Shown: positions 22,146 through 51,576, counted from the first letter of the stretch. The stretch is 64,000 nt of DNA from Candidatus Latescibacterota bacterium (GCA_965237675.1 OZ250150.1:4608001-4672000), one strand, 5' to 3'. Numbers and translations are program-made. Notes: generated from the sequence alone by a model not told the origin.

Positions 22146-22152
22146 TGCCGCC

Positions 22153-22206: not shown

Positions 22207-22322
22207 CGCATCACCTGTTCCGCAGGACTCTCTTTACAATATAGCCGCGAATACTGATGGCTGCAAGGTCGATCTGCTCGACAGGCGTTGAGGTGCCATT
22301 CCTCGGCAACGCAGTCAAACCA

Positions 22323-24235: not shown

Positions 24236-24277
24236 AGTATATAAGCCGGTGTTTCGGTGTGGTGGGTGAGTATGGTC

Positions 24278-24742
24278 TTAACCTGATTAATTCATGAATT
24301 GTCACGGATAGCGGTATCAGGAAGCAGAAACAGCTTCCGAGTGAATCGAGAAAGTGAAGTCGGCGCGTGGTTTTCGGGCTGACATGTTAGAAGAAGAACG
24401 ACAGCTCTGGCGAGACCTGCGAGACCTACCCCCTAACCCCCTTCCTGAGAGGAAGGGGGAACCGTTGGATTGGCTGAAGACGTTTCCATTGTTGAAAAAA
24501 TCCCGGCGAAATATTGTAATAGGTCAGCGTGTTGCGATCGAGAAAGTGACGAGATGACATTCTCCGATCAATCAGAGCGTAAAAAAACAGTATTTACGCA
24601 ACGCTTGGTTCAACTCCCCCTCTCCTCGCAGGAGACGGGGCCAGGGGGAGAGGTCCTCACTAAAGACTCGCGAAAAGGATTCTGTGATGATTATCTTGAG
24701 CCTCCACGCCAGGTTGCTCCAGGTTCATTGTTATAAGGTTAA
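24278..24742. mobile_element. TTAA-flanked MITE-like element carrying REP-like hairpins
   Basis: Ends TTAACCTGATTAA ... TTATAAGGTTAA (imperfect TIR); first 31 bp and an internal hairpin recur at 63518 and 63656. Confidence 0.6.
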
Positions 24743-27982: not shown

Positions 27983-28230
27983 CTAAGCCTGTCGAAGCAA
28001 GCCTGTCGAGGGACGGTATAATATCTCCCCTCCCCACGCCGGGGAGGGGCCGGGGGAGGGGTCGCCATCCGGGTGCGAGCCTGACCCGATCTGCACGCTG
28101 CTTGCGCTGTGTTCGTTGAGCTTGTCGAAACGGCCCGTCGAAGCGCGTTCATTGAGCTTGTCGAAATGCGCGTTTCGTTACCCTTCGACAGCCCTTCGGC
28201 AAGCTCAGAGCGCCGACTCAGGGCATTGAT
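27983..28230. repeat. cluster of REP-like palindromes
   Basis: GAGCTTGTCGAA-type units in both orientations plus a CCCCTCCCC...GGGGAGGGG hairpin. Confidence 0.7.
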
Positions 28231-28361
28231 GCGATACCCGTCCGTAGCGCTCGAAGATCTCCACCGCAACACTCCTGTCAAGTCCTGCCGTAGCCGGGAC
28301 CGCTCGTGGCGGATGACCCGATTCGGGGCCTGATTCGGCGGGTCGGTCGGGCACGCGGGCA

Positions 28362-29453
28362 TCAGAAGTGGTCGGGCGCCCAGAAAATGACCTCGCGGCG
28401 GGGGAACCACTCCTCCAGTTGACGAACTTCCCCGGCCTCCAGCGAGATCCCGCGGGCGCGAAGGATGGATTCCAAATCGCGGCCGGAGGACTCGCCGAAC
28501 AGGAGCCGACACGTCAGATCGGCCGGCAGCCTTGGCGCCAACTCCGCCGCTTCGGGCACGGCCCTGGCGATCAGCGAACCGGGGTCGAAGGGCAGGGCCA
28601 TCATCGAGTTGTTGCCAGTGAGTCTCAGATCGGCGTCAGCAGCAGCAACCAGTGCGTCGACAAACGGGTGGCCGTGGGGGATCTCGCCCTGGATCTGCAT
28701 CACCCCGGCCTCTGCGCACTCGTCGAGCAGGAACTGCACAAGGGCATCAAGGGCCGGGCCGCTCTCGAAAGCGACCTCATACACCCTGGCGCCGTCGTCA
28801 CCTCTCTCCCAGTTGATATACCCGCAGAGTCCCACGGGGCCACGGACGACGGTAGTGGGCAGCACGCCCCGCACACGGGAGGGTGCGTAGTCCCAGTACG
28901 GACGCGGACGCAACATGCTACCGCTGCGACCGGCGTTGTGACGCTGATAGAGCGCTACCGTCTCCTTCAGGTCGCGGCTCTCGTCGAAAGGCAGGACCTC
29001 AAGCGCGGACCGCCCCGGCTGCGGAGGACGGCGCAACTCTGCGTGAAAACCCATCAGCGGCACGCAACACCAGCCGAGGCGCCGGTAGAAGCGTGCCGGG
29101 ATCCCTGTGGACAGCAGACCCAGGTCGTAGGCATCGTCGCGCATGTACTCCGCCGCGTGCTCCATCAGCCGCGTGGCGATGCCGCGTTCCCGGTAGTCGG
29201 GATGAGTGGTGACGCCGCCGATGCCGCCCATGCGGACGGGCGTGGCGCCAACGTGGACCCGGCGGTCCCAGATGCGCAGCGTCGATACAATCCGGCTTCC
29301 GACAACGACAACGGGTGTGTGTGACGGGCTCCAGGTCGGATCGCCTTCGATGTAGCCTCGGTAGCGCTCGCGGCCCCGGGGGTTGTGCACTGCGCAGAGC
29401 AGGTCGAGGAGTTCTTCGAGTTCCGACTCGCGGATGGGGCGAATCTCTTCCAT
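28362..29453 (-). CDS. Eis-like GNAT acetyltransferase
   Basis: GGIGGVTTHPDYRERGIA, FYRRLGW, second GNAT-like domain. Confidence 0.85.
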   Translation of the reverse strand: MEEIRPIRESELEELLDLLCAVHNPRGRERYRGYIEGDPTWSPSHTPVVVVGSRIVSTLRIWDRRVHVGATPVRMGGIGGVTTHPDYRERGIATRLMEHAAEYMRDDAYDLGLLSTGIPARFYRRLGWCCVPLMGFHAELRRPPQPGRSALEVLPFDESRDLKETVALYQRHNAGRSGSMLRPRPYWDYAPSRVRGVLPTTVVRGPVGLCGYINWERGDDGARVYEVAFESGPALDALVQFLLDECAEAGVMQIQGEIPHGHPFVDALVAAADADLRLTGNNSMMALPFDPGSLIARAVPEAAELAPRLPADLTCRLLFGESSGRDLESILRARGISLEAGEVRQLEEWFPRREVIFWAPDHF

Positions 29454-29505
29454 AGTATCCTTTTTAAACCAACGAGCGCAGCCGCCGCAGCGCGGCGCCC
29501 TGCTG

Positions 29506-29697
29506 TCACCCGTCGATTGTCAGCGACAATCCGTCAAATGCGATTCTGTCCCCATGTGCGGCGGCAAACCTGTCCAATTCATCGTGATTCAGGTATCCTT
29601 CGTGCGAAATGTGGGTCGCGTAAGCGTGTGCGCGGCTGATGTGCCAAGAAACGTGACTTGCATCACTTAACCAGTTTTCGTTGTCGTGCAAGAGCAA
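29506..29697 (-). pseudogene. C-terminal remnant of a PhnP-like MBL-fold hydrolase
   Basis: YATHISHE...IAFDGLSL resembles the PhnP C-terminus. Confidence 0.45.
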
Positions 29698-29733
29698 TGC
29701 TTACCCAGTCTCCGTCGTGGCGCATGGCAAGGC

Positions 29734-30636
29734 TTACCCCAGATGCTCCGTCCGCAGTTGCCGCGACCACTCAAAGTACTCGTCCAGTCGCACCAACTCG
29801 AACTCATCGACGATATCGGCTGCGGTGCGGTCCGCAGCCTCGCTGTAGATCACCGAAGTGCCCACCTCCCCGGTCGTGACAATGCGAACGGCCTCGCCGT
29901 ATTGCCGATGTATATCGTCGAACCTGGCCCGATTCTTGTCGAGATGCACCACTTCAAAGTCAAGATTGATGCGTGCCGTGGCCCAGCTCTGATAGTTATT
30001 GCTCTGAGCCAGGGTGGTCCCCTGCGGATCGATAATGGTGCAGGGCGTCCCCCTATACACCGAGCCGACGAAATAAGCCTGCACATCCAATGCCCAGAAA
30101 TTCTGCACGAGCCCACCGTGGTACATGGAACTGAAGAGCAGTAATTTGGGCTTGAGCTTTTTGTACTGGGCCCGCAATTCCCCGAAGTTCAGATCGAAAC
30201 AGATCACACCGCCCACCGGCCCGAATTCGGTCCGGATCAGGGACGCGCCCGGACCGGGGCGGGTGCCGTGGTCGAACTCCGGGTACACTGGAATGTACTT
30301 GCGGTAGACACCGGCCAGTTCACCCTGCCGATCGAGCAGCCCGAGGACATTGAAGACCGCCCCGCTCTTGCGCTCCTTCTCATGCACTGGGACGGTGATA
30401 TAGCAGCTATACTCCCGGGCCAGGCCGGCCAGCAGCTGAGTTGTAGGCCCCTCGGGCACGTCCTCGTCGCAGTTCCGGCAGATGGTCTCGGGCAGGACGA
30501 TCAGATCGGGCGTGGTGGCTCGGGCGACCTGCCCCACCAGGTCCTCCAGGTCCTTGTGGGTCTGCTTCATCACCGCCTCGTCCTCTCCGCTGATCGGGGC
30601 GTAGGAAATGCTCGATACGACGATATAATTGCTCAT
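29734..30636 (-). CDS. carbon-nitrogen hydrolase (nitrilase superfamily)
   Basis: E-K-C triad: VLPE, YRK, ICFD. Confidence 0.9.
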   Translation of the reverse strand: MSNYIVVSSISYAPISGEDEAVMKQTHKDLEDLVGQVARATTPDLIVLPETICRNCDEDVPEGPTTQLLAGLAREYSCYITVPVHEKERKSGAVFNVLGLLDRQGELAGVYRKYIPVYPEFDHGTRPGPGASLIRTEFGPVGGVICFDLNFGELRAQYKKLKPKLLLFSSMYHGGLVQNFWALDVQAYFVGSVYRGTPCTIIDPQGTTLAQSNNYQSWATARINLDFEVVHLDKNRARFDDIHRQYGEAVRIVTTGEVGTSVIYSEAADRTAADIVDEFELVRLDEYFEWSRQLRTEHLG

Positions 30637-36141: not shown

Positions 36142-36433
36142 AGACTTCAATATAACAAAATCGCTACAAAACCACTATTCTTCGTAATTCCAATTGCGGA
36201 AACGGGCTTAAAACGGGCAAATGTGCAAAACATGGGTTCCTGCGGGCATTGTTTCGACTGCCCTGTGGCGGACATGGTATAGAACTTGAAACACGGACCG
36301 GGATTGTATAGCTTGATACCAGACCAGTTTGGTTTTGTCGAAACGCCCGCGTTTCGCTACCCATGAGGTAGAAGTTCCACCACCCTCGAACGTCCCCTAT
36401 TCCCTTGCCCTTTTTCGAGAGGCCGGGAGAGGG

Positions 36434-36632
36434 AAGAGGGGAGACGGTAGAAGTGAGAAAATCGGGTAGAGGGTAGAGGGAAGACGTAAGAGGAGTTGGT
36501 AACTTTATCACATGGCAAGTCACTAATCGGATTCACGCGATATTCAAAAAGAAGTGGATTGCGAAGGTGAGCAAGAAACCGGTGGGGTGCGGTGTGGTCC
36601 TCTTACGTCTTACGTCTCCCGTCTCCCCTCTT
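36434..36632. repeat. nested inverted repeat built from short purine-rich units
   Basis: Two perfect 14-bp pairs: 36434-36447/36619-36632 and 36481-36494/36598-36611. Confidence 0.8.
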
Positions 36633-36659: not shown

Positions 36660-37932
36660 ATGGATACCCTTCCGCTATCTGCACGTCCCGATCTCGCAAA
36701 TTACGTGAAACGGGCGGAAGAACTCGTTGAGGTAGCCGGATCCGAGGAATCCAACCCCGTACACGATTGGTGCAACGAGTGTCTTGACGAGATTGTCCGT
36801 CTCTCCGGACCCGACCTGACGGAATTTGTACAGGGCAGCTATCAGCGCGCCATCGGAGAAGTCGAAAAGGGCGCCCGTGAGATGTCCGCGAAGGCAGGCG
36901 AGGGTGGCCGCGGGTTTGCGCTTTCCGACGCGCAATTTCTCATTGCGCGGGCCCACAGTTTCGAGAGTTGGAACGCGTTTGCCGCACACGTCGACCTGGC
37001 CTCACGCGAGACTGCCGAAGGGGCTGAGTTCGAGGTCGCGGCCGATGCGGTGGTCGACGGGAATCTCCCGAAACTCGAGTCGCTCCTGCGGCGGAAACCG
37101 GCGTTGGCGCACGCCCACTCCGGTCGAATGCACCAGGCGACGCTGCTGTATTACCTCGCCGCCAACGGCGTGGAAGACTTTCGCCAGCGGTCGCCCGCCA
37201 ATGCGCCCGAGATCGCGCCTTCTGCTGGACGCAGGTGCCGTGGTGGATGCCATCTGCGGACCCGGTCAATCCGGAGACACGCCGATGTTGGCGTTGGTGA
37301 CCAGTGTTCATCCACACCTTCGCGGCGTCGCGACCGAACTGATCGAGATATTTGTCAAGGCGGGTTCCAAAGTGGACGGACTAAACGGGGACGGCGCACC
37401 GGTACGTCTGGCCCTCAAGTTCGGATATCCCGAGTCGGCAGCCACCCTGGTACGGCTCGGCGCGGAGGTGAAAACCGTCGTGATGGCCGCCGGTGTGGGC
37501 AGGCTGGACCTGACGAGGGAATTCGTCGAAGACCGTGGCGCATCTAAGGCCGACCTCGCGGAGGCGTTTGAGCTTGCCTGTCGGTTCGGACGGACGGATG
37601 CGGCAGCGTACCTGCTGGCGCAGGGGGCCGACGTGGATGGGCGCGGCGCCTGGAATATGACAGGGCTGATGTGGGCCGCAGGCCAGGGACATCTCGACAC
37701 CATGGCCATGATTTTCGATCACGGCCCCGCACTCGAATTGAGGAACGAGTTTGGAGGCACGTCGATGGGCACCGCCCTGCATTTTGCGACCAACGCGCCA
37801 AACCCGGTGGCCGACTATCCGACCGTGATCGACCTGCTCCTGAACGCGGGATTGAAATTCGAAGGATCCAGGAAAGGAACTGGTGTCGCGAATCTGGATA
37901 CCGTGCTTCGCATACACGGACGGATCGGCTAG
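36660..37932 (+). pseudogene. ankyrin repeat protein, frameshifted near 37215
   Basis: ORF 36567..37547 N-part (LYYLAANGVE) joins ORF 36826..37932 C-part (LLLDAGA, TGLMWAAGQGH); may be an assembly error. Confidence 0.75.
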
Positions 37933-37968: not shown

Positions 37969-38520
37969 TCAAGGCGTAGCCAGGACGGCTGCGCTTTTCT
38001 GTTGGCGAACGCGATTCGCAAAACCGGGTATTGTTTGCCGATCTGAGCACCGCTGGCTCGGCCGCTGAGCCTGAACCCTGAGCCAGTTGCCCCTAAGGCC
38101 TGAACTGAGCCGCCCCCTGAGCCTGTCGAAGGGTCGGCGAAGGGTGTTGAAGCGCGGCGAGCGGTTGCCGAATGCCAGAGCACCAACGGCCCACAGCGAA
38201 ATCCGCTCTGTTAAGGGAAGTTTACTCTTTCTGCGTGATTCCATTGACTCCAAAAGCAAGTCGATCTTGTCGTCATAGTTGGCGACAAGCTTTGGAAGCG
38301 CCCGGAAATCGGCCAAGAAAAAATCGAAACGATCGATCAAAGATCCGTCCTCACCGGCTCCGCCATGACGCCAGGTTTCTTCATCGGACGCCTCCACAGA
38401 CAGATGAAAGAACCAGCAGTCCTGTAGCTCATCGGTACCGCAATACCACATATCGCGGGTATCCTGGTCCAGGAACCGCTCATAGGTACGAGAAATAGGA
38501 ATCGTGCCTCCCGGTTCCAT
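37969..38520 (-). CDS. hypothetical protein whose 3' end runs into a REP cluster
   Basis: RBS AAGGAG and ATG; the last ~60 codons translate repeat and intergenic DNA. Confidence 0.45.
   Translation of the reverse strand: MEPGGTIPISRTYERFLDQDTRDMWYCGTDELQDCWFFHLSVEASDEETWRHGGAGEDGSLIDRFDFFLADFRALPKLVANYDDKIDLLLESMESRRKSKLPLTERISLWAVGALAFGNRSPRFNTLRRPFDRLRGRLSSGLRGNWLRVQAQRPSQRCSDRQTIPGFANRVRQQKSAAVLATP
38062..38150. repeat. nested REP-like cluster
   Basis: Several CTGAGCC left arms, a core CCCTGAGCCTGTCGAAGGG (38115-38133), then CGAAGGG-type right arms. Confidence 0.75.
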
Positions 38521-38991
38521 TTTGTCTCCTTATCGTGCGTCATTCACTTCCATATTTGCCATTTTCACTTTGCAGTTGAATCGAACGTTATCCCGTCAAC
38601 GACCCGACGGTGTGGGTGCAAACGGCGGATCAGACGGTCAGCTTCGCAGCCTCCGACATCGCGTCGTCCGGAAGCAACTACATCAATTTCAACCTGTCTT
38701 CTTCCGCAAGCACGCTCCGCGGCGGCATCGTCGCCGGGGACCGCTTCATCCTGGCCCTGACCCGTCCGCCGACACCTGAACCCACGGCGACGCCCGAGCT
38801 TTAGTCCGTGGTCGTCGGGCCTCATTGGTATAACCCGGAGTTTGCAATGCAGGCGACGGACGCGTGCAAGTACGAACCCATGCGCTCTGTGGATGAGGAC
38901 GGTCGGGGCTATGACCTGGAAAACCTGACATCGGACGAGTACTCTCTTACCGTGAGCTCCCGTCGCCTTCCTGACTTTGCGAACGATATGC

Positions 38992-39020
38992 TTGACAATT
39001 CGCACATAATGCTTTATGCT
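38992..39020 (+). promoter_or_regulatory. sigma70 promoter of the 39160-44379 operon
   Basis: TTGACA-17-TATGCT, about 140 bp before the first ATG. Confidence 0.7.
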
Positions 39021-39159
39021 GAATTAACCACGCCACCACAGGGTTAAATTGGCTATTTTGATGACGAGGAACAGTGGGATGTTCCGGTCATGGCTGTGTT
39101 TACGCCACCATTGATCATGTCGCTGGTTCGGCAGGTCTTTCAAACCCAGGAAACACGAT

Positions 39160-39960
39160 ATGGACAGTATCGAACAAGCATTTGACAACTCCGAAAATGC
39201 AGCGAAATCAGCCCTCCAATCCGCTACCAACCTGGTGAAGTTGTCCAGACGTCTGCAAAAGGCGGCCAAAGAGGGTAACATCGCTGTAATCAAGAAGTCC
39301 CGAGGCGGATTTAACGACGCCCTGGAGAACCTGACGCAGGTGGTGGCAGACGCTGTCCAATCCTGGCCCTATGGAGATGAAGAAGTGGAAGAATACCTCA
39401 AGGGTGGCTATACTGACGAACTGCGTCGTGCCGCCTCGGAAATGGGCCTGGAAATCCATGAACGGGACAAGCAGTTGATCTCACACCCGTCCACCTTGCG
39501 AATTTTAACCGAGGATGAGGCGGTCCGAATCGACAACAAGAAGATCTCGACCATTAAGCCGTCCTACCTGGTCGATCTGCTGATCGCGAATCAGAGGAAG
39601 CGCAGCCGCTTCTCGGCTAAACGCTTTCTGGAGGCCCTGTACAAAGTGTACTCGGAGCTTGTGAAGGAAGATTCTTCGGACGGACTCATGACGGGCGGCT
39701 CCGGGCGCGTGGTACTTTTGGCCAGAATCTACAGGTTGTTCACGTCTCTGCCGGGCAGTGGACGAGATTATGCTCAAATTGACTTTGCCCGAGACCTTTA
39801 CCAGTTGGAAACAAGCGGAGTCTCTAAGACGACGTCAGGCGCCAGTATATTCTTCCACGCATCCACGGGAACCCGAGGCGCCAGAAACGTCTTCACCTTT
39901 GTCGGGCCACACGGCCAGGACATCAAGTACTACGGCATTCGGTTTACGAGGGACGAGTGA
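39160..39960 (+). CDS. hypothetical protein (helical N-terminus, alpha/beta C-terminus), first gene of operon
   Basis: Intact 266 aa; its stop overlaps the next start (GTGATG). Confidence 0.85.
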   Translation: MDSIEQAFDNSENAAKSALQSATNLVKLSRRLQKAAKEGNIAVIKKSRGGFNDALENLTQVVADAVQSWPYGDEEVEEYLKGGYTDELRRAASEMGLEIHERDKQLISHPSTLRILTEDEAVRIDNKKISTIKPSYLVDLLIANQRKRSRFSAKRFLEALYKVYSELVKEDSSDGLMTGGSGRVVLLARIYRLFTSLPGSGRDYAQIDFARDLYQLETSGVSKTTSGASIFFHASTGTRGARNVFTFVGPHGQDIKYYGIRFTRDE

Positions 39961-40928
39961 TGCACAACACAATCTCCATCTCGCTCAAAGGCTGGCTGCA
40001 GGTCATTGATGAAGAGTACCTTTCGTCGTTCGTCCGAGACGGCGGCGCGTCGATCAAGTTCGCAGTGCCATCAAACGAGGGCTCCAGGGCTGGTTTGTAC
40101 GCAAAAATGGAGGCTAGTTGCCATGAGTTGGACTATCTTTTCATTAAGCTGAACGCAAAGACGATGCGGGCGCACATGCCGCAGGACTTCTTCTTCATGA
40201 TTGCCAGGCAAGTCGATTGGCGGCGGCTGGCACGCCGTATGATCCTGAAGCTGGCCAACGAGAAGGGCTACCGGATTGAGGGAATATGTCCCGGCGTGGA
40301 CGGCAACGTCTTCGACGCCATCGCGACAGTCAACGGTCTCGAATCGGAGTTCGTTCTCGGAAACCTGAGGCCGATGATACAGAACACTGTCTTCAAGAAC
40401 ACGAAGATGGCGAGAGATTTCCGGGTGTGTATGAGCCATCTTTGCATGGAAGAAAACAGTATTGGCGGGTACATGGGCGAGCCGCTATTGGAGTGGCTGA
40501 CGGGCGAGAACACGCGGATTAGCGGCGTCCGGCCCTTTTCCATCTACACCAGTATCAATCGTAACACGGCCAGATACTTCATCGAATCGGCCCTCTACTG
40601 GATTCATCATGTGGGGCACTCCGGAACTGTAGTATTGTTTGACAACGCACGCGTAACGGTGGCTAGAAATCCGAAGGACGATCTGCGCTACTACACCAGA
40701 GCCATGGCGATGGAACACTACGAGTTACTGCGGGAATTTATCGACGGCGTTGACCGGTTGACGAGCACGGTACTGGTGGTCGTAACCAACAACGATTTCC
40801 TCGACGACAGTGGCGATCGCAGGTCCCGAGGCTACGGGATATATGAGGCCCTGCGCACCCGGGTGATGGACGATGTTCGCGATAGGAACAGGGTCAATCC
40901 GGTCGCATCCCTGGTGCGGCTGACATAG
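39957..40928 (+). CDS. degenerate DUF2791/BrxD-like P-loop family protein
   Basis: EEYLSSFVRDGGASIKF, LLEWLTGE, VVLFD, YELLREFID, GIYEALRTR resemble DUF2791 proteins; no GxxGxGK. Confidence 0.7.
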   Translation: MMHNTISISLKGWLQVIDEEYLSSFVRDGGASIKFAVPSNEGSRAGLYAKMEASCHELDYLFIKLNAKTMRAHMPQDFFFMIARQVDWRRLARRMILKLANEKGYRIEGICPGVDGNVFDAIATVNGLESEFVLGNLRPMIQNTVFKNTKMARDFRVCMSHLCMEENSIGGYMGEPLLEWLTGENTRISGVRPFSIYTSINRNTARYFIESALYWIHHVGHSGTVVLFDNARVTVARNPKDDLRYYTRAMAMEHYELLREFIDGVDRLTSTVLVVVTNNDFLDDSGDRRSRGYGIYEALRTRVMDDVRDRNRVNPVASLVRLT

Positions 40929-40942
40929 GAAGGTGGAAGGCA

Positions 40943-42211
40943 GTGGCAGTTTGCGCCGATAAACACAAATTCGCCTCCAGGCGAGCCCTGGAGGCTCTCC
41001 GAAACGGCGTACCCAACAGGGACGCAGTGAAGATATTGGGCTGCAACCAGCCTGAGGCTGAAGATCAGTTCGAAGGCATGTTGACCGGGGCTACGGAAGG
41101 CGTCGACCTTTCGTCCGGCACTTTGGGGATCCTGGTCTCAGGCGATTTCGGCTCCGGCAAGTCTCACCTGCTTACTCACCTGGAAGATCGGGCTCTTTCC
41201 CAGGGTTTCGTTTGTAGCAAGGTGACCATCAGCAAGGAGACGCCGCTATACGACCTGGGCAAGGTCTTCAAGTCGGCCGTGGATAACGCCCAGATGCCTG
41301 GCCGTACCGGCCGGTTGATGGAGGAACTGGGACAGGCGTTGAAGCCAGATTCACAAGAATACGCCGGCTTCTTTAAGTGGGCAAACGATACGGGGTCTAA
41401 CGGGCTGAGCCAGATGTTCCCCGCCAGTCTGCTCGTTCACGAACGGGCGGGCGACCTCGAGCTGAACAACGAGATAGAGAACTTCTGGGCGGGCGACAGA
41501 ATCTACATTTCCCGGGTCAAGAATGGCCTCAGGCAGATAGGGCAAAAGCAGAGTTACTCCTTCCGAGCGCCCAGGGTCGCCGACCTGCCGCCCCAGCGTC
41601 TCCGTTTCGCCGTCCAGCTGATCAAGGCTGCTGGTTACAAGGGTTGGGTGGTGCTGCTGGACGAGATCGAACTCGTCGGTTCGTACTCTCTCCTGCAGCG
41701 GGGAAGGTCTTACGCCGAGCTGGCTCGCTGGCTGGGACAGGCCGGCAGCGGGTCCTATCCCGGGCTGAGAACCGTGGGATCCGTCACCAACGATTTTGCT
41801 TCCGCAATCATCACGGATGGAAAAAAAGACCGCGACTACGTGGTACCAAAGTTGGATAGTACGGATCGTTACGAAAGTTTGAAGGCAGACGCCGATACCG
41901 GTATGAGATTGCTCGTGCGAGGATGTTTGCCGTTGAATCAACCAACAGACGCGGACGTTCAATTGACCATGGAGAATCTACGGAGACTCTACACCGACGC
42001 CTACGGCTGGGATGCTCCGCCGGTACCAATTAGGGCCGGCGGCGCCGGGTATCAGAACCGGATGCGCTACAAGGTCCGCGCCGCCATCAATGAATGGGAT
42101 TTGATGCGGCGCTATCCTGACTACCAGCCCAATACTGAGGGCGAGGAGTTCCGACACCCCTATGCAGAGAACGCCGACCTCGAACGAGAGTCCCGGGACG
42201 ACACTGATTAA
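40943..42211 (+). CDS. DUF2791/BrxD-like P-loop ATPase
   Basis: RRALEALRNGVP N-terminus; Walker A GDFGSGKS; ISKETPL; Walker B VVLLDEIE. Confidence 0.85.
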   Translation: MAVCADKHKFASRRALEALRNGVPNRDAVKILGCNQPEAEDQFEGMLTGATEGVDLSSGTLGILVSGDFGSGKSHLLTHLEDRALSQGFVCSKVTISKETPLYDLGKVFKSAVDNAQMPGRTGRLMEELGQALKPDSQEYAGFFKWANDTGSNGLSQMFPASLLVHERAGDLELNNEIENFWAGDRIYISRVKNGLRQIGQKQSYSFRAPRVADLPPQRLRFAVQLIKAAGYKGWVVLLDEIELVGSYSLLQRGRSYAELARWLGQAGSGSYPGLRTVGSVTNDFASAIITDGKKDRDYVVPKLDSTDRYESLKADADTGMRLLVRGCLPLNQPTDADVQLTMENLRRLYTDAYGWDAPPVPIRAGGAGYQNRMRYKVRAAINEWDLMRRYPDYQPNTEGEEFRHPYAENADLERESRDDTD

Positions 42212-42246
42212 AATGCGACCATTTCTCCTTCCTGGGGGAAACTGAA

Positions 42247-44379
42247 TTGCCGGAACTTTTTGATGAACTGAAATCGGTGAATACGGGATCCGGCGCGGTG
42301 GCCTGGCTGCGGTTCGTCGAAGAAAAGGGCGGTAATGGCATACGGGCGGCGCTATTCCAGACGTCCGCACAGGGTGAACCACTGGACTTCTGCTTCACGC
42401 GGACGGTTTGCTCGGGATCTGGCGGACAACTGGCAATCGTCAAGCCGGGTTTCTTGCTATCGCTGGTAAAATCACTACTCAGAGCTATCACTTCTGTGCC
42501 AACGTTGATACTCGCTCGGGCCGATGAAGTACCTTATGGATCGATCAACGAAGAAATAAAGGTACAAGTACCCTTTTGCCGTATCGCAACATCCGGTGTT
42601 CGGCCCAATGGCGAATCGGACGACCCGCATAACGAAGGCTATGAATTGCTTTGGGTTACTGAAAAACCCAATCCAGATACCGAAGCGAGCCAACTTCTCG
42701 TAGAGATACTGGACCGGGGCAATCCCGCTGAACCTTTCGAACGGGCGACTGCAGGATTGGACGTAGCGTTTGGCGACGATCGGATTCACGCTGTCACCGA
42801 CCTTTCGGGTTTGGCCGTTGTAGTGAGCTTATCTTCATTGCCCGAACGCCCCGGATATCCAGCCAGCGATTACTCGGCAATTCGTGAGAATATCCATAAG
42901 GCAAGTTCAGGCCCACGACCCGACGTAACTCTGGCCGAACGTTTGTGGACCGTTCTGGCCAATCCGCCGGAACCTTCGCGAACGATCCCGCTGCATTGGG
43001 CCGGTGACTTGATGCCCTTCCAGGAGCAGGGTGTCCGGGCTTTGCTGGAAAACCGCCGGCTGCTGTTAGCCGACGACATGGGCCTGGGTAAAACCGTACA
43101 GGCGATCACAGCCTTACGGATTCTCCGGGCACGTCGCGAAATCAAATCGTGCTTGATCACGGCTCCTGCAAGCGTGCTGAACCAGTGGCGGCGCGAAATC
43201 GAAAAGTGGGCGCCTGAGCTTTCCGCCATCATCATCCGTGGTTCGGTATCGGACCGCAGTTGGCAGTGGCATGCCGAGAAAGAAATAACACTCGTGAGTT
43301 ACGATACTCTGAGGTCCGACTTCAGCACCCAATCTCTGGTGGGTCGCAAAAATTGGGATGTGGTCGTAGCGGACGAGGCTCAGAGAATCAAGAACCGCAA
43401 CGATACGAGCGATGCCCTGAAGGGGTTGAAAAGAAATCGCTCCTGGGCTCTGACCGGCACCCCTATGGAAAATCGCGAAGAGGAGCTGGCCTCGATACTG
43501 GAGTTCGTTGATTATGACCGCACTGGAGTGACAAAGCGGTACCGTCCAGGTGTGGAATTGCAGAGGCGTCACCGTGAGTTGCAGGTTCGACGCAAAAAAG
43601 CGGAGGTCTTGAAAGACCTGCCCGTCAAGCAGGTCACGAAGGCAGACATCGAGTTGGGCTCCCGCCAACGCGAGAGCTACGATAAGGCCGAACAGGAAGG
43701 CATCGTCTACCTGAAGTCTCTTGGCGCGGAAGTCAACGTGCGGCACGTGCTTGAGCTCATCACTCGCTTGAAGCAAATCTGTAACGCCGACCCAAAGACC
43801 GGTGAATCCAGCAAATTGGCCGACATCAAGGACCGCGTGGACCAACTGGTATCCCAGGGACACAAGACGCTAATCTTTTCGCAATACGTCAGCGACACAT
43901 CCGGCGTGGGCGCCGTGGCCAACCACGTGCGAGATTTCATTCCGCTTACCATCACGGGAGACTTGCCCCAGGAGGAGCGAGCCGAGATCATCGAACGATT
44001 CAAAACCTGCAGCGAACACAAAGTGTTGGTACTGTCGCTGCGGGCGGGCGGACTGGGATTGAACCTGCAGGAGGCGTCCTACGTGATTCACCTGGACCGT
44101 TGGTGGAACCCCGCCGTAGAAAGTCAAGCCGAAGACCGAAGCCACCGCATCGGCCAGACGGTCAAAGTCAACGTCATCAAGTATTCCTGCATCGGAACCA
44201 TTGAGGAGCGTATTGACGATATTCTGGAGAACAAACGGGAACTGTTCAACCAACTCATCGACGATGTGTCGATGGATCTGTCCGCCCAGTTGAACAGTGA
44301 TGAACTTTTCGGGCTGTTCGGACTAGCACGGCCGCTCGACTCGTGCATTCAGGATAAAAAAGGACCAATCCAAAAGTAG
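42247..44379 (+). CDS. SNF2-family helicase/translocase with an extra ~250-aa N-terminal region
   Basis: LADDMGLGKT, DEAQ, LTGTPMEN, LIFSQ, AGGLGLNL, WWNPAVESQAEDRSHRIGQ all intact. Confidence 0.95.
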   Translation: MPELFDELKSVNTGSGAVAWLRFVEEKGGNGIRAALFQTSAQGEPLDFCFTRTVCSGSGGQLAIVKPGFLLSLVKSLLRAITSVPTLILARADEVPYGSINEEIKVQVPFCRIATSGVRPNGESDDPHNEGYELLWVTEKPNPDTEASQLLVEILDRGNPAEPFERATAGLDVAFGDDRIHAVTDLSGLAVVVSLSSLPERPGYPASDYSAIRENIHKASSGPRPDVTLAERLWTVLANPPEPSRTIPLHWAGDLMPFQEQGVRALLENRRLLLADDMGLGKTVQAITALRILRARREIKSCLITAPASVLNQWRREIEKWAPELSAIIIRGSVSDRSWQWHAEKEITLVSYDTLRSDFSTQSLVGRKNWDVVVADEAQRIKNRNDTSDALKGLKRNRSWALTGTPMENREEELASILEFVDYDRTGVTKRYRPGVELQRRHRELQVRRKKAEVLKDLPVKQVTKADIELGSRQRESYDKAEQEGIVYLKSLGAEVNVRHVLELITRLKQICNADPKTGESSKLADIKDRVDQLVSQGHKTLIFSQYVSDTSGVGAVANHVRDFIPLTITGDLPQEERAEIIERFKTCSEHKVLVLSLRAGGLGLNLQEASYVIHLDRWWNPAVESQAEDRSHRIGQTVKVNVIKYSCIGTIEERIDDILENKRELFNQLIDDVSMDLSAQLNSDELFGLFGLARPLDSCIQDKKGPIQK

Positions 44380-44632
44380 AGTAGAGATGGGGCGCAGCGT
44401 GATTCGAGCCGTGACCGAAAAGCGCGAGACGCAGACGCAAACCTTCCGCGTGTTTGCAGTTCCGTGGCAGGCAATCCACACGTGTCTGCGCCTTGCTGTG
44501 CCGATCTCGCGATGGCACACAGTGTGATGCTCAACCCTGCCCTTCGGCCAACGCCCTTTTTGCTGTCGTATTATCTACCAATAGACGATATAACGCGATT
44601 CACAAACCCTCGAGCCAAAAGGAGATCTCACA

Positions 44633-44836
44633 TTGCAGGCTCCAACACCGCAAGACAAACTGGCCGAATTTGACGCCCGTTCGTCGCGGATCGAGGGGAT
44701 TGTTGAGCAGATGGATGCACGCTTGAACAGCCTCCAGCAAGGCCAACGTGATATTTTGTCCTGGATTCGATGGCTTTTAGGAATCCAGATTACAAGCTTG
44801 ATCACGCTTGGCACGCTCATTTTGATCAAGCTTTGA
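44633..44836 (+). CDS. small coiled-coil protein with C-terminal TM helix
   Basis: RBS AAGGAG then TTG; heptad region followed by WLLGIQITSLITLGTLILIKL. Confidence 0.6.
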   Translation: MQAPTPQDKLAEFDARSSRIEGIVEQMDARLNSLQQGQRDILSWIRWLLGIQITSLITLGTLILIKL

Positions 44837-45099
44837 TCGAGCTTGGATAACCCCAACTGCGGGTTTCCAATTCCGCGATATAGACCCGCGGCCTCATTGA
44901 AACCCCTTCGACAAGCTCCTAAGTGTCGGTACTGATGCATCCGTCAACGTTCGGCGTTGCTTCGCCATCTTCATTGTTCCCTATTTTTAAAAAGGGAATT
45001 ATAGCGCAAAGTCACATTTCAACGATACCCGCACTTTGTTCCCCTTCCTGTTACGGTCTGTACAACCCGGTACGTACATGCGTTTCTATATTTTTATAC

Positions 45100-45166
45100 T
45101 TGACAAACCGTACTCCGTTAACGTACTTTTGTGAAAAGATATGCAAATGACAACCACGGGAGTACG
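45100..45166 (+). promoter_or_regulatory. sigma70 promoter with inverted-repeat operator
   Basis: TTGACA-18-TACTTT; CGTACTCC (45109) inverted with GGAGTACG (45159), which overlaps the RBS. Confidence 0.6.
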
Positions 45167-45168
45167 CA

Positions 45169-45525
45169 ATGAACGGGAAAACTACAAGGTCGTTGTCAGA
45201 TGTCATTCAAGTAAACGTCCTTTTGTATAGGAACGAAGATGTTTGGATTGCTCAGGGTCTTGAATATGATATTGTTGCTCAAGGACAGACAATACCCCAG
45301 GTCAGGGCTCGGTTTTACGTTACAATTATGACTCATTGCCATTTTGATGCCACAAATAACCGGGAAATCTTACAAGGCATTGAGAAGGCCCCTGAGAAGT
45401 TCTGGACCATGTTTGAAGAAGCCGAGGACGCTCAGCTAAAACGCAATCATCGTCGATTTGCTCTTGATGAATGGAAAACATCTTTGATGCCTGTTGTAAA
45501 AGCGAACTCTCGCGTTTGCGCATGA
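45169..45525 (+). CDS. HicB-like antitoxin (partial RNase H fold)
   Basis: VWIAQGLEYDIVAQGQT resembles the HicB N-terminal domain. Confidence 0.65.
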   Translation: MNGKTTRSLSDVIQVNVLLYRNEDVWIAQGLEYDIVAQGQTIPQVRARFYVTIMTHCHFDATNNREILQGIEKAPEKFWTMFEEAEDAQLKRNHRRFALDEWKTSLMPVVKANSRVCA

Positions 45526-45535
45526 GGATTTCGCT

Positions 45536-45781
45536 GTGTTTTATCTGACGTTTGAACAGTTCAAAGAGTGTTTAATACAAAATTTCGATTGCGAATGTGA
45601 TATTCAGGAAAGCGGCACAGATGTTATTGGAACTTATTGGGGTTTTACCCGCACAGTCGACGGAGAATTACTATATTCAGGAACAGCAGGCAAACCCAAT
45701 GAACAAATCAGGAGACCACAAATCAGAGCAGTTTTGAGAGCATTGCAAATAGACCGGAATGAATTTTACGGTCATGTTTAA
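45536..45781 (+). CDS. small putative toxin, HicA-like
   Basis: 81 aa, 10 bp after the HicB-like gene; C-terminal IRAVLRALQIDRNEF resembles the last HicA helix. Confidence 0.45.
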   Translation: MFYLTFEQFKECLIQNFDCECDIQESGTDVIGTYWGFTRTVDGELLYSGTAGKPNEQIRRPQIRAVLRALQIDRNEFYGHV

Positions 45782-45830
45782 AGAAGCAAATCTCAAAAAG
45801 TAACCTGACCTCCCATAACGCTATCAACAG

Positions 45831-45862
45831 CCTGCCAGAAGTAACATACTGGCAGGTTTTTT
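45831..45862 (+). terminator. intrinsic terminator
   Basis: CCTGCCAG-10-CTGGCAGG followed by TTTTTT. Confidence 0.8.
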
Positions 45863-45901
45863 ATTTCCCTAACCCTTACCCATATTGTTGCCAGCGTTAT
45901 C

Positions 45902-46081
45902 CTACCGCTTCCCTTTCGGATCAACAATCCGAAGTTCTACATCCTGAACAACCGCCCGTAGCAACTCCTCCGGGCTCGCATCTATCACAATCTCCTCTTC
46001 CATCTCCGCCTTCGTTGGCCTATACCGACTATCAACAACCTCTACCACCGGCTTCTTCTTACGCTCATCCGTAGTACCCAT
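45902..46081 (-). CDS. small hypothetical protein at the element end
   Basis: YRPTKAEMEEEIVIDASPEELLRAV; type recalled as flanking IS1595-family transposases; start abuts the inverted end. Confidence 0.55.
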   Translation of the reverse strand: MGTTDERKKKPVVEVVDSRYRPTKAEMEEEIVIDASPEELLRAVVQDVELRIVDPKGKR

Positions 46082-46155
46082 TACAATTCCCATTTGAAAG
46101 CGGGGAACTGTCTCATCTAATATAGGCACAGAGGGTATCGAGTGCTCCCATGTAT

Positions 46156-46911
46156 TCATTCCTCCGATAAATCTGCCGCGATAACACTGAACGCGCCTTT
46201 CGGATGCGTCTCATATTTGCCCTGGGTCAGCGCTTTTTCAAGTGCCGATTTCGCGTTCTCGATAGGACGGGGGTTGTGACCGTTCACGACAATCTCGAAG
46301 TCGTAATCTTCAAGGCGTTCATACCTGCGTCTCATTTCATCGAGACAGACTTCACCATTCATCTGCGACCGGATTCCGCCTTCCTTAATCCAGTACGATA
46401 CGGCCGCACCATCGAACCCTCCCCTGCGGGACTGTCCATATATCGTATCTGCGCAAATCAGGACCCGGGATGTCCTGGAAGCCCTCCACAACAGCCACAT
46501 CTCACCTCTATTATCTCCCGACCAGATCGCGCGAATGTTCCCGGGAAGTATATCGCCATCTCGATATAGTTCATCTGACTTCAGTCTGATACGTGACCTG
46601 GCAGGGGCCAACGCCGGAACGTATACAGGTATCTTGAACCGTCTGCTGAACCACTCGACATCTCGTTGGTGGTTTGGACTCGTGCAGACAACGGCTTGAA
46701 ATCGACAATCTGCATATTCCTTCAGGACATTCGGAGCATGTCTTCCTATGGGCTGAATCGGATCAATCAGAATGGCTCCCTCGGATGTGGAAAGCAGATA
46801 TGACTGTTGAATATCGTTATTGCCCCATGTCGTCCATCGAACCAGTTCTGGCTTTGGTTTTGTCCCGATCTCAATGTGAAACCGGATACCGGACTGAATA
46901 AAGGTCTCCAC
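46156..46911 (-). CDS. MBL-fold-like hypothetical protein
   Basis: ILIDP, TSPNHQRD, LICAD, NGH. Confidence 0.65.
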   Translation of the reverse strand: METFIQSGIRFHIEIGTKPKPELVRWTTWGNNDIQQSYLLSTSEGAILIDPIQPIGRHAPNVLKEYADCRFQAVVCTSPNHQRDVEWFSRRFKIPVYVPALAPARSRIRLKSDELYRDGDILPGNIRAIWSGDNRGEMWLLWRASRTSRVLICADTIYGQSRRGGFDGAAVSYWIKEGGIRSQMNGEVCLDEMRRRYERLEDYDFEIVVNGHNPRPIENAKSALEKALTQGKYETHPKGAFSVIAADLSEE

Positions 46912-47033
46912 ATTTCTCTCCGAAATGGTGGTTTATCACCGTCAAAAAAAATCCCAAAACTGTGCGATGAGCTTGGGAACACCGAATTCGGGTCTCTGCG
47001 TTGTCGGGTATGGCAGTGTCGCGGGGTTGATTT

Positions 47034-51018: not shown

Positions 51019-51576
51019 CTATTGGCGGCGCTGACGCGCAATATACTTGCGCAGCTTCTGGATCGCGGGAAGGTCTACATCTCTCAGAGGTGCGCCAGCA
51101 GGGTGTTTGTGGAAGTTGACCTTCTCGTCCAGTTGTGCCTCAGCGCTGAGGATCGGGCAGGACAGGTCGCCCAGCCGCCTTTCCGGTGCACAAAAGGCTT
51201 CATGCGGATAAGGCCAATCGGTCCATCGGCCTGAGGTAACCACGTCTCCGGATTGGGTCATCTCGAGTAGTCCAAAACTGACATACTGATCGAGTCTCCA
51301 AAACCCGATGTGTTCGTCGGGATGCCGGACTTTCTGTTGGGAATACCCCAAGGTACCAAGACACACGGTTACCTCCGGCGCATCTGTTTTCCATATTGCC
51401 CAATCGATGTCGCCGTGTACGCGCGAGACTTCGCCTAACAGAAAGTCCAATCCCCAACCCCCTCCCAGCCAGTGCGGAATCGAACGAGATCGCAATGCCT
51501 CATGAATCTCTCTGATCAGATCAAGCTGGACAGAATTGGGATCTTCCAAACACGCACGATTTACAATTCGAGACAT
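51019..51576 (-). CDS. ANT(2'')/Lnu-like nucleotidyltransferase
   Basis: WLGGGWGLDFLLGEVSRVHGDID. Confidence 0.8.
   Translation of the reverse strand: MSRIVNRACLEDPNSVQLDLIREIHEALRSRSIPHWLGGGWGLDFLLGEVSRVHGDIDWAIWKTDAPEVTVCLGTLGYSQQKVRHPDEHIGFWRLDQYVSFGLLEMTQSGDVVTSGRWTDWPYPHEAFCAPERRLGDLSCPILSAEAQLDEKVNFHKHPAGAPLRDVDLPAIQKLRKYIARQRRQ

Follow-up and report, generated by a model that had tools for sequence, protein, structure and literature searches.

A stretch of DNA of 64,000 nucleotides from a Candidatus Latescibacterota bacterium (GCA_965237675.1 OZ250150.1:4608001-4672000; hereafter the window, with positions counted from its first letter) carries four intact genes that encode a protein of no known family, two BrxD-like proteins, and a SNF2 helicase. 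Does this operon belong to a named antiphage system, is it a variant of one, or does it serve something other than immunity? An earlier note, made from the sequence alone, had proposed a candidate defense system of an architecture that it did not recognize.

Operon organization and expression

The features of the locus are as follows.

38004-46166 (~8 kb): strain-variable island that carries the operon, absent from some same-genus genomes
38992-39020, plus strand: sigma-70-type promoter TTGACA-17-TATGCT, with 10 of 12 consensus matches and hexamers invariant in relatives
39021-39159, plus strand: 5′ leader with the inverted repeat GGAACA-N6-TGTTCC (39068-39085), as read from the sequence
39160-39960, plus strand: gene A, 266 aa, open reading frame of no known family
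39957-40928, plus strand: gene B, 323 aa, P-loop-less BrxD-like protein (PF10923, C-terminal half), predicted partner of C
40943-42211, plus strand: gene C, 422 aa, complete BrxD-like ATPase of the ORC/Cdc6-type AAA+ class
42247-44379, plus strand: gene D, 710 aa, small adaptor domain fused to a SNF2 helicase
42247-42789, plus strand: N-terminal adaptor domain of D, residues 1 to ~181
42982-44379, plus strand: SNF2 helicase core of D, with GLGKT, DEAQ, and Helicase_C

The coordinates bear out the four open, tightly coupled plus-strand frames of the earlier note: A and B overlap by 4 nt (1 nt if B begins at the ATG at 39960), and gaps of 14 nt and 35 nt separate B from C and C from D. The promoter that it had named is also present, with TTGACA at 38992, a 17-nt spacer, and TATGCT at 39020. 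This is the sole 10-of-12 promoter-like site within 38500-45200, and promoter-like sites are no rarer than in shuffled sequence (2 observed versus a shuffle mean of 3.5). In an alignment of the window with five related Latescibacterota loci, both hexamers are invariant, whereas the spacer and the upstream DNA are variable. The six-sequence alignment also leaves GGAACA and the final TCC of the leader inverted repeat unchanged; the repeat might serve as an operator or fold into a hairpin in the RNA.

The operon is expressed, as metatranscriptome contigs from three studies cover it. Contigs X1 and X2 (study P1), X5 (P2), and X9 (P3, labelled sponge metagenome) from RNA libraries together cover 39037-44918, and single contigs span A/B/C and C/D, although they are uninformative on strand, on a single transcript, and on level. 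Both X1 and X9 start at 39037, weakly suggesting that a 5′ end lies there.

Proteins of the operon

Gene A matches no Pfam, PADLOC, or NCBIfam family above noise. Its sole Pfam match, SEN1_N, is at noise level (E 0.084), and PADLOC-DB 2.0.0 gives no family at E ≤ 0.1. A belongs to a family of 786 representative clusters (E ≤ 1e-3). AF2 models (pLDDT 85 and 83) begin with a helical hairpin, followed by an alpha/beta domain and, at the C terminus, a winged-helix-like domain; all VIA fold matches are below Z 8, so the fold assignments rest on sub-Z-8 matches. For the middle domain to be called a PD-(D/E)xK nuclease, we required a restriction-endonuclease-like fold together with a conserved D...(D/E)xK motif. 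The close clade conserves E87, D103, D125, and K127; in distant members D125 is replaced by G and K127 by R. Foldseek matched MutH only at E 0.78, and the best VIA rows for this domain were frataxin-like or Med17-like folds (Z 6.1-6.7).

Genes B and C were described in the earlier note as two DUF2791/BrxD-like paralogs, which is only partly right. Both exceed the Pfam gathering cut-off (22.2 bits) of PF10923, the BrxC_BrxD family formerly named DUF2791, but B (32.5 bits) aligns to profile positions 190-331 only, that is, to the C-terminal half. C (66.1 bits) retains an intact Walker A motif (GSGKS) and Walker B motif (LLDE), with G72, K73, S74, D240, and E241 invariant in 19 sequences, and matches the BrxD models at 55 bits in PADLOC and 57.3 bits in NCBIfam (cut-off 350). 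B has no Walker A motif and no GK[ST], and carries LLDN at the place of Walker B. Similarity between the two is negligible (BLASTP E 0.48; hhalign probability 14.6%); B aligns with full-length BrxD-like proteins that occupy the same gene position elsewhere at hhalign probabilities of 95% and 96%. The "two paralogs" are thus one active ATPase and one P-loop-less partner. The doubled DUF2791 is an old pair of a B-type and a C-type protein, which also occurs with Shango/BrxHI-type helicases on plasmids. Structure prediction supports binding between B and C: their complex scored 0.87, versus 0.01 for the best of three controls, three runs shared at least 90% of contacts, and the partner pLDDT was 90. 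Of 80 solved complexes, 58 attained this mark, as did 2 of 110 mismatched pairs; these figures are only rough, because our own alignments were used.

Gene D is a SNF2 helicase, as the earlier note had stated: it exceeds the cut-offs for both PF00176 (SNF2-rel_dom, 157.9 bits; cut-off 24.9) and PF00271 (Helicase_C, 73.4 bits; cut-off 23.5) and has Walker A and DExx motifs. The helicase motifs, including GLGKT and DEAQ, are invariant in 17 sequences. The best PADLOC match is ZorD (PDLC00633, 282 bits), over the helicase part only. The best helicase matches in NCBIfam include the "pilus expression-regulating Snf2 family helicase" (256.6 bits) and the "SCO1167/SCO6262 family helicase" (271.2 bits), which likewise cover the helicase core only and fall far under the cut-offs of 1100 and 1200 bits. 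No nuclease domain follows the helicase, and the Mrr domain of the related locus L095 matches nothing within the window.

The N-terminal domain of D has no match in Pfam or the Atlas, and in its alignment only W20, F48, L77, W136, and G188 are invariant. It is a separable module, with its own gene in most relatives: it aligns with a separate 185-aa gene of L095 (32% identity, E 7e-19), is encoded apart from the helicase in 28 of 33 metagenome loci, and in six Dehalococcoidia loci is divided from it by a conserved in-frame TGA near codon 181. D is a fusion of this domain with a helicase, and the domain may act as an adaptor.

Comparison with known defense systems

The architecture, which the earlier note did not recognize, fits none of BREX, Shango, Zorya, and DISARM by Pfam, PADLOC, and NCBIfam, and our literature search found no description of it. 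By Pfam there is no TerB, PglX, or PglZ among A to D, as the note had observed, and A has no PADLOC match either.

Type 2 BREX is one relative. According to an excerpt of PMC12839542, its BrxD and BrxHI form a tightly linked pair in which BrxD is a possible helicase loader. The cassette resembles this pair in placing an ORC/Cdc6-type BrxD-like ATPase beside an SF2 helicase, but the helicase is of a different class and no PglX, PglZ, PglW, or BrxC (PglY) is found nearby, with neither a methyltransferase nor PglZ among A to D. The same genome has PglZ (PF08665) matches at 3.18, 3.27, and 4.23 Mb, of which the nearest is about 420 kb from the cassette at 4.647 Mb, and the only PF10923 matches of the genome are B and C. 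Neither protein approaches the 350-bit cut-off of the BrxD equivalog NF033438 (C 57.3 bits, B 22.6 bits).

Shango is another. It comprises the TerB-like protein SngA, the ATPase SngB, and the DEAD/DEAH helicase SngC, and is antiphage in P. aeruginosa and E. coli, as stated in excerpts of 10.1101/2022.11.11.516204 and 10.1101/2022.05.11.491447. Shango and the cassette are alike in that each is a methylase-free operon that opens with a small protein and encodes a PF10923/BrxD-like ATPase and an SF2 helicase, and the Lhr-type relatives of the cassette match the SngB (95 bits) and SngC (248 bits) models. However, Shango has one BrxD-like protein where the window has two, one of them P-loop-less, and the window helicase is SNF2-type with an extra adaptor. 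Component by component, A shows no TerB domain, having no Pfam or PADLOC match and a model of hairpin, alpha/beta, and winged-helix-like parts; the match of C to SngB (PDLC03959) spans 40 residues and scores only 21.7 bits (E 2.3e-5); and the best 25 of 47 PADLOC families for D do not include SngC.

The D core finds its best PADLOC match in ZorD of Zorya type I, in the PADLOC description a SWI2/SNF2 helicase with an Mrr-like nuclease, and some relatives of D have an Mrr_cat domain. Compared to ZorD, only the helicase core aligns, D in the window has no nuclease, the score against the ZorD equivalog NF041790 is 151.3 bits (cut-off 1500), and A to C match neither ZorC nor the membrane pair formed by ZorA and ZorB. 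DpdE and DrmD are related SNF2 helicases of defense systems. D scores 80.2 and 69.7 bits against the DrmD equivalogs of DISARM (cut-offs 950 and 610), and A to C show no DrmA, DrmB, or methylase.

Other relatives are unnamed. Four-gene cassettes with the same order and homologous A-, B-, and C-type proteins lie on pDESTI.01 of Desulfomonile tiedjei (NC_018026.1) and plasmid3 of Aulosira laxa NIES-50 (AP018310.1), annotated as hypothetical proteins, BREX ATP-binding proteins, and a DEAD/DEAH helicase. They differ from the window in that their B-type protein keeps the P-loop (PF10923 full length, E 4e-52), their helicase is BrxHI/SngC-type with no adaptor domain, and their identity to C of the window is about 24%. 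We read the operon as a further variant of the ATPase-plus-helicase defense theme, a relative of Shango and of part of type 2 BREX, here with no nuclease.

Distribution and variant forms of the family

The neighborhood proved conserved well beyond the window. Among 80 genome loci spanning at least nine phyla, A-B-C are colinear in 78 (the remaining two stop at a contig edge) and D follows directly in 56. In the metagenome loci, A and B precede C in all 48 with room, and an A-type gene heads the cassette in every case, genome or metagenome. All four proteins keep 45-76% identity across phyla.

In the metagenome scan, a five-gene form is the commoner one, in which A, B, and C come with a separate adaptor and a SNF2 helicase. 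The SNF2 helicase comes next in 20 of 28 metagenome loci with room, and 10 of these 20 helicases carry an Mrr domain (in L095, SNF2 plus Mrr_cat at E 8e-22); among the 80 genome loci, Mrr occurs in L075 only, and it is absent from the window. Furthermore, 22 of 78 genome loci and 8 of 28 metagenome loci have A-B-C but no helicase at all, and in five genomes with such loci no D ortholog was found elsewhere in the genome. The helicase is therefore not obligatory, which the mechanism proposed below leaves unexplained. Frameshifts, stops, or truncations damage A, B, or C in 7 of 22 loci without D, versus 1 of 56 with D.

The B and C profiles match the second and third genes of the more distant relatives (pDESTI.01, plasmid3, and L096; probability 95-96%), and the first gene of these relatives is linked to the A family (hhalign probability 92%; BLASTP E 1e-13). 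Their helicase is not SNF2 but BrxHI/SngC-like (291 and 248 bits), and that of L096 also has a PDDEXK_1 match (E 2e-4, under the Pfam cut-off). By these homologies, the cassettes form one family with two helicase classes, SNF2 and Shango/BrxHI-type.

Mobility and genomic context

Empty sites define the island. In two genomes of the same genus, 0.69 kb replaces 38004-46166 (G059) and 1.27 kb replaces 38004-47033 (G057), between syntenic flanking genes of 75-85% identity. GC content is 0.478 in 44001-46000, versus roughly 0.55-0.57 in adjoining bins. The cassette is present in 9 of 15 genomes of the genus and missing from six, and in other genera of the phylum it occurs in 2 of 153 genomes, one of these being a weak, distant match of the L096 type. 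For the alphaproteobacterial locus L076, it was found in none of 400 other genomes sampled from the phylum of that locus. The 80 loci represent 44 distinct flank contexts, and copies from other phyla can be closer than a same-phylum copy (C of a Dehalococcoidia copy 74% identical; same-phylum C 38% and A 31%). Together, these results indicate that the operon has spread horizontally, including transfer across phyla. Searches of phage records, plasmid records (with A), and viral contigs gave no cassette match.

The earlier note's picture of a decayed minus-strand patchwork around the operon is not borne out, as the plus strand also carries the upstream ankyrin-repeat ORF (36826-37932) and 14 of 22 neighboring ORFs match a Pfam family (E ≤ 0.001), mostly over nearly the whole profile (for example, positions 1-374 of 375 in a PLP decarboxylase). 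Nearest neighbors across loci are mostly metabolic or transport genes. The four nearest ORFs include a family of toxin-antitoxin, restriction-like, abortive-infection-like, or transposase type in about 17 of 38 flank contexts examined, a raw and uncontrolled count; transposase families are among the nearest ORFs in five of the contexts examined. The Desulfomonile copy is near AbiEi/AbiEii. The Aulosira copy, on a cyanobacterial plasmid, comes directly after a gene run whose annotation gives an alkaline-phosphatase-domain protein, an ATP/GTP-binding protein, and a DEAD/DEAH helicase; judged by annotation and gene sizes alone, this run looks like the PglZ-BrxD-BrxHI end of type 2 BREX.

Function and alternative explanations

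For cassettes that join A to B-type and C-type BrxD-like proteins and to an SF2 helicase, often nuclease-bearing, we infer a role in defense: their most likely job is probably immunity against phages or other invading DNA, and, jointly with this, the window operon is probably a derived member of a widespread, unnamed mobile-cassette family and not a one-off. The stand-alone anti-phage or anti-plasmid module of the earlier note, said to have no obvious methylase or nuclease, is partly supported: the architecture is mobile and conserved, and its distribution is patchy. The cassette includes no methyltransferase, and Pfam, PADLOC, and NCBIfam reveal no methylase, nuclease, or other recognizable effector in A to D of the window. 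The description does not extend to the family, which is not nuclease-free, as many relatives' helicases bear Mrr.

In the mechanism that we propose, B, which has lost its P-loop, and the active ATPase C are predicted to bind each other as a heteromer by way of the N- and C-terminal motifs that are best conserved in them. A, which has a coiled-coil hairpin and a winged-helix-like domain, would connect the B-C module with DNA or with some trigger. The N-terminal adaptor of D may couple the SNF2 motor to A-B-C, and the motor would translocate on target DNA. Cutting of that DNA would follow in many relatives, by an Mrr or PD-(D/E)xK domain fused to the helicase. The window clade, having no nuclease, would need either translocation alone, which might strip or stall replication or transcription complexes, or a nuclease encoded elsewhere.

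A non-immune role in DNA transactions, with an ATPase loader and a SNF2 translocase acting in host repair, replication restart, or transcription (RapA-like), is in our view improbable. It would suit a window copy with neither nuclease nor methylase, the metabolic genes that make up most neighbors, the BrxD-like proteins as ORC/Cdc6-type loaders (as in the excerpt of PMC12839542), and the NCBIfam helicase matches. However, these matches are the sub-threshold, core-only ones given above, and a cassette that is patchy within its genus and rare in the rest of its phylum, moves between phyla into 44 flank contexts, has nuclease-fused relatives, and adjoins defense genes in its plasmid copies fits such a role poorly.

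We give even less credence to a relic, in which a sponge-associated clade has lost the Mrr nuclease and its cassette is drifting to loss or is reduced to a regulator. The drop in Mrr from half of the helicase-bearing metagenome loci to one genome locus, and the loss of the helicase from 22 genome loci, seven of them with damaged genes, point that way. Against it, damage to A, B, or C affects only one of the 56 loci with D, every SNF2 motif is invariant, the four proteins hold their identity across phyla, the promoter is conserved, and RNA-library contigs cover the operon.

It is very unlikely that the AAA+ pair and the DNA-binding protein serve a mobile element's own integration, target choice, or maintenance, for although the cassette lies within a variable island, sometimes near transposase families, and the C profile weakly matches TnsC (E 0.16), that match is noise-level and restricted to the P-loop region, no integrase or transposase is conserved beside the cassette across the 44 contexts, and the cassette itself is the sole part common to the loci.

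Implications for the family

Immunity remains our preferred reading, and we judge a bolder form of it unlikely at present. A-B-C would be the sensor/loader core of a new, widespread immune family, akin to Shango and BREX, with an interchangeable effector slot, and the window clade would be a working, nuclease-free version that protects without cutting. If so, the motor in the slot would be of SNF2 or Lhr type, and an Mrr or PD-(D/E)xK nuclease might or might not accompany it. The nuclease-free clade would have spread horizontally through at least nine phyla, probably among members of sponge microbiomes, and in these bacteria ATP-driven translocation would evict or stall the replication or transcription machinery of the invader while leaving its DNA uncut.

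Operon Organization and Expression

Four plus-strand genes, A to D, make up the operon, and all four are present where the earlier note had placed them, as is the promoter-like sequence that it had named. Genes A and B overlap, and gaps of 14 nt and 35 nt separate B from C and C from D, respectively.

Features of the operon and its leader
38992-39020, plus strand: promoter-like TTGACA-17-TATGCT, upstream of A
39068-39085, 5' leader of A: inverted repeat GGAACA-N6-TGTTCC, largely kept in six Latescibacterota loci
39160-39960, plus strand: gene A, 266 aa
39957-40928, plus strand: gene B, 323 aa
40943-42211, plus strand: gene C, 422 aa
42247-44379, plus strand: gene D, 710 aa

Sites of the promoter's consensus quality are not rare by chance (2 observed versus a shuffle mean of 3.5). 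Neither hexamer varies across the window and five related Latescibacterota loci, in contrast to the spacer and the upstream DNA. The inverted repeat in the leader could act as an operator or form an RNA hairpin.

Positions 39037-44918 are covered, at 92-99% likeness, by RNA-library contigs from three studies (X1 and X2; X5; X9), and single contigs span the A/B/C and C/D junctions; such contigs carry no information on strand, single transcripts, or level, and RNA libraries can contain DNA. The contigs of X1 and X9 both start at 39037, which is 17 nt past the -10 hexamer; transcription is predicted to begin at about 39027-39037. Contigs covering the operon continue to 44918 over an ORF of 67 aa (44633-44836, plus strand). 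This ORF starts with TTG, 8 nt behind an AAAGGAG ribosome-binding site; its product has a hydrophobic stretch toward the C terminus and matches no Pfam family. It may be an additional gene of the operon, specific to the lineage, or else be unrelated. Contig cover is zero in the bins 37168-37835 and 45184-45851 and near zero in 38170-38837. The uncovered flanks were dropped as evidence of operon-specific transcription, as missing contig cover proves nothing.

The surroundings had been described as a decayed minus-strand patchwork, a description that does not hold: the ankyrin-repeat gene upstream lies on the plus strand, and a Pfam family is reached by 14 of the 22 neighboring ORFs scanned, in most cases over near-full profile length. 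Farther downstream, an ORF at 51019-51576 (minus strand) encodes an aminoglycoside-2''-adenylyltransferase-like domain (PF10706, E 4e-16) and has GNATs, a methyltransferase, and a nucleotidyltransferase, likewise small modifying enzymes, around it. The G+C content of the window rises to 0.70 (14001-16000) and 0.63 (28001-30000) over a background of about 0.53-0.56.

Distribution and Mobility of the Cassette

A search of one genome per species yielded 97 relatives, of which 80 loci were kept. The gene neighborhood, whose conservation the earlier note had proposed to check, is well preserved: A, B, and C are colinear in 78 of the 80 loci (the remaining two stop at a contig edge), and D comes next in 56. 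According to the record titles, the loci belong to Latescibacterota, Dehalococcoidia and other Chloroflexota, Binatia, Vicinamibacterales and other Acidobacteriota, Nitrospirales, Entotheonella/Tectimicrobiota, Thermodesulfobacteriota, Acidimicrobiales, and a few Alpha- and Gammaproteobacteria. They lie in 44 unrelated flank contexts; flank families were scanned in 38 of these 44 clusters (139 ORFs), and ten ORFs were scanned separately.

Presence of the cassette (the operon and its relatives) is patchy. In the window's phylum, it was found in 11 of 168 genomes, namely 9 of 15 of the window's own genus and 2 of 153 others, one of the latter being a weak, distant match of the type of L096, a locus discussed below. 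In the phylum of an alphaproteobacterial locus (L076), none of 400 other genomes sampled carried it. In two complete genomes of the window's genus, 0.7-1.3 kb replaces about 8-9 kb of the window (38004 to 46166 or 47033) between syntenic flanks. Cross-phylum copies are up to 74% (C) and 64% (A) identical to those of the window, whereas a copy from the same phylum but another family is 38% (C) and 31% (A) identical. Collectively, the taxonomic spread, the flank contexts, the patchy presence, the empty sites, and the cross-phylum closeness show a mobile accessory cassette passed among lineages.

At the left edge of the variable island lies a short dispersed repeat of about 40-55 nt (38102-38155, containing CTGAGCCTGTCGAAGGG), on which RNA contigs pile up with loose ends on both sides. 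A second one lies at about 36336-36494, and each of five genomes from the window's genus contains dozens of copies that are 88-100% identical. Just upstream of the island, the ankyrin-repeat ORF (36826-37932, plus strand) is conserved in same-genus genomes; ankyrin-repeat proteins are common among animal symbionts.

Three RNA runs containing window sequence are labeled "sponge metagenome," one of them being X9, with near-identical contigs. The taxa carrying the cassette probably resemble sponge-symbiont consortia, and these lineages may have a common habitat.

A metagenome scan with the profile of C yielded 192 relatives, of which 80, at 39-69% identity, were kept. Wherever there was room, A and B preceded C (48 of 48). 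An SNF2 helicase came next in 20 of the 28 loci with room, half of which (10 of 20) also had Mrr; unrelated genes came after the core in the other 8. Among the genome loci, Mrr was found in one (L075). Damage in A, B, or C affected 7 of the 22 helicase-less genome loci versus 1 of the 56 with a helicase, counts that, because the loci are related to each other, do not amount to a statistical test; they fit a functional link between core and helicase. The other 15 of the 22 are undamaged, so intact cassettes of A, B, and C alone exist. A search of five genomes with such helicase-less cassettes found no D ortholog elsewhere in the genome.

Protein A

No family in Pfam, NCBIfam, or PADLOC matches A. 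A word-indexed search returned 418 relatives at E <= 0.001, the best 120 of which are 53-99% identical and nearly all unnamed. The profile of A matched 786 clusters at E <= 1e-3, and 237 at E <= 1e-30, among 1.84 billion representatives, and the ESM Atlas placed A solely within unnamed "hypothetical protein" clusters. A was absent from the phage records, plasmid records, and viral contigs searched, at the sensitivity used. Distant members are too divergent in alignment for pattern scans, and one of them, used as a query, matched nothing in metagenome contigs.

Confident AF2 models of A (pLDDT 85 and 83) predict a long helical hairpin (residues 4-66), an alpha/beta domain (about 71-150), and a C-terminal domain (about 149-266). 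Foldseek gave no match at E <= 0.001 for the whole model or for the sub-model 68-266, and VIA matched the whole model only at the N-terminal hairpin (Z up to 9.9), where long helices make such a match uninformative. With VIA, the alpha/beta domain weakly resembles frataxin-like or Med17-like folds (5n9j_W, Z 6.7, rmsd 3.7, 75 aligned). The best matches of the C-terminal domain are weak (Z 4.6-5.9) and fall on winged-helix domains of kleisins, RPC62, ESCRT-II, and ORC/Cdc6, including 7qen_C (Z 5.9, rmsd 3.9, 86 aligned), 2xub_A (Z 5.8, rmsd 3.5, 84 aligned), and 3cuq_B (Z 5.5, rmsd 2.9, 78 aligned). As all matches of residues 68-266 are below Z 8, they are taken as leads and no fold is named. 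A PD-(D/E)xK nuclease was also considered; the suspected site is not conserved in distant members, and the fold search gives no support. A PDB sequence search with the profiles of A, B, and C returned nothing below E 0.03.

Proteins B and C

B and C had been read as two DUF2791/BrxD-like paralogs. For C the reading stands: it is BrxD-like (66.1 bits to PF10923, the BrxC_BrxD family, formerly DUF2791), with invariant Walker A and Walker B motifs. For B it stands in part, as only the C-terminal half matches PF10923 (32.5 bits, profile positions 190-331), there is no P-loop, LLDN occupies the Walker B position, and B and C are barely similar to each other.

The predicted B-C complex scored 0.87, and the best of three controls scored 0.01. 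Of 80 solved complexes, 58 attained the mark for this score, as did 2 of 110 mismatched pairs; these counts are rough, because custom alignments were used. At least 90% of contacts are shared between the runs, and the partner has a pLDDT of 90. The predicted interface coincides with the most conserved motifs of both proteins, which are the RNGVPN helix and a C-terminal block in C, and the GGAS site and the C-terminal RTRVMDDVRDRN block in B. The complex model supports binding between B and C.

Protein D and Its Adaptor-Like Module

The helicase of D is of the SNF2 type (157.9 bits) and carries GLGKT and DEAQ motifs. It is preceded by about 240 residues without a family; this N-terminal domain had no usable match in the ESM Atlas. 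In the same-phylum locus L095, the A-, B-, and C-like genes are followed by a separate 185-aa gene and then by an SNF2 helicase whose C terminus bears an Mrr_cat domain (E 8e-22). Residues 16-171 of the window's D are homologous to the 185-aa protein (32% identity, E 7e-19), which makes D a fusion of helicase and adaptor-like module. Among the metagenome loci, the adaptor is a gene of its own in 28 of 33 and is fused only in the five nearest the window's clade. In six Dehalococcoidia loci (L020, L031, L036, L037, L041, and L058), a conserved in-frame TGA near codon 181 divides the adaptor domain from the helicase, and L031 has an extra TAG two codons on; judged from these sequences, the split D would most simply be two genes.

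In two unrelated loci (L095, 13442-13909; L171, 3538-4119), the next gene in the direction of the cassette encodes a NUDIX domain, which may be chance.

Relatives with a BrxHI/SngC-Type Helicase

C has a single plasmid match, found on Desulfomonile tiedjei pDESTI.01, where the layout is that of the cassette: a 279-aa hypothetical protein, two "BREX ATP-binding" proteins, and a DEAD/DEAH helicase, with AbiEi/AbiEii nearby. The second gene encodes a full-length BrxD/SngB-like ATPase (PF10923, E 4e-52) that the profile of B matches (probability 95%), the third is matched across almost its entire length by the profile of C (probability 96%), and the helicase is BrxHI/SngC-like (291 and 248 bits). 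The same four-gene set occurs on the conjugative plasmid3 of Aulosira laxa (L088, AP018310.1, record 12393-24287). Directly upstream of it are genes annotated as an alkaline-phosphatase-domain protein, an ATP/GTP-binding protein, and a DEAD/DEAH helicase, which by annotation and gene sizes look like the PglZ-BrxD-BrxHI end of type 2 BREX.

In the window's own family, locus L096 (genome G064) opens with a gene of 311 aa, continues with two BrxD-like genes, and encodes a DEAD helicase at least 1220 aa long, which matches PDDEXK_1 at E 2e-4, short of the Pfam cut-off. A direct comparison of A with the Desulfomonile first protein is not significant (probability 0.8-8%). However, the two are linked in two steps, since the L096 first gene matches both the profile of A (probability 92%, E 6e-7) and the Desulfomonile first gene (BLASTP E 1e-13). 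The same core thus occurs with either an SNF2 or a BrxHI/SngC-like helicase: the core of A, B-type, and C-type proteins stays constant, and what is exchanged is the helicase, whether or not it carries a nuclease.

Proposed Mechanism and Relation to Known Systems

In the proposed mechanism, an AAA+ heteromer of B and C would form, together with A, a core for sensing or loading, and the adaptor module would link this core to the SF2 motor. The motor carries a nuclease in many relatives and none in the window's copy, and the cassette has no methylase. It would work most like Shango and the BrxD-BrxHI pair, as these are described in 10.1101/2022.11.11.516204, 10.1101/2022.05.11.491447, and PMC12839542.

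The operon matches none of four named systems. Compared to Shango, it lacks TerB, and its helicase is of the SNF2 and not the DEAD/Lhr type. Compared to type 2 BREX, defining features are missing: PglZ is absent within 420 kb, and the model of the BrxD equivalog gives 57 bits against a cut-off of 350. Zorya and DISARM differ from the operon in their defining features. The BREX-related "BR" systems, as presented in PMC12839542, are centered on DUF499 and carry methyltransferases, which rules them out as this cassette. Neither BrxD nor SNF2 is mentioned in 10.1101/2025.09.30.679545, and a cassette of two PF10923 proteins and an SNF2 helicase is undescribed in the full texts searched, supplements and most subscription journals aside. 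An earlier metagenome survey counted PF10923 signal in sponges as Pgl (PMC5099237); some of that signal may stem from this cassette.

What the earlier note had observed thus largely stands, and its reading as a putative defense module, argued from gene content, is plausible and now sharper. If the role is defense, many proteins annotated as "hypothetical protein" or "BREX ATP-binding protein" would belong to one system family, including 786 representative A clusters, 97 species genomes, and metagenome loci numbering at least 192. The logic of this family is modular, with a constant A-B-C core and swappable helicase-nuclease effectors. A defense role would also join Shango and the BrxD-BrxHI pair of type 2 BREX under a common theme in which an ATPase loads a helicase, and the family would offer natural variants for its dissection: a pair of active and inactive ATPases, fused and free-standing adaptors, and effectors that carry or lack a nuclease.
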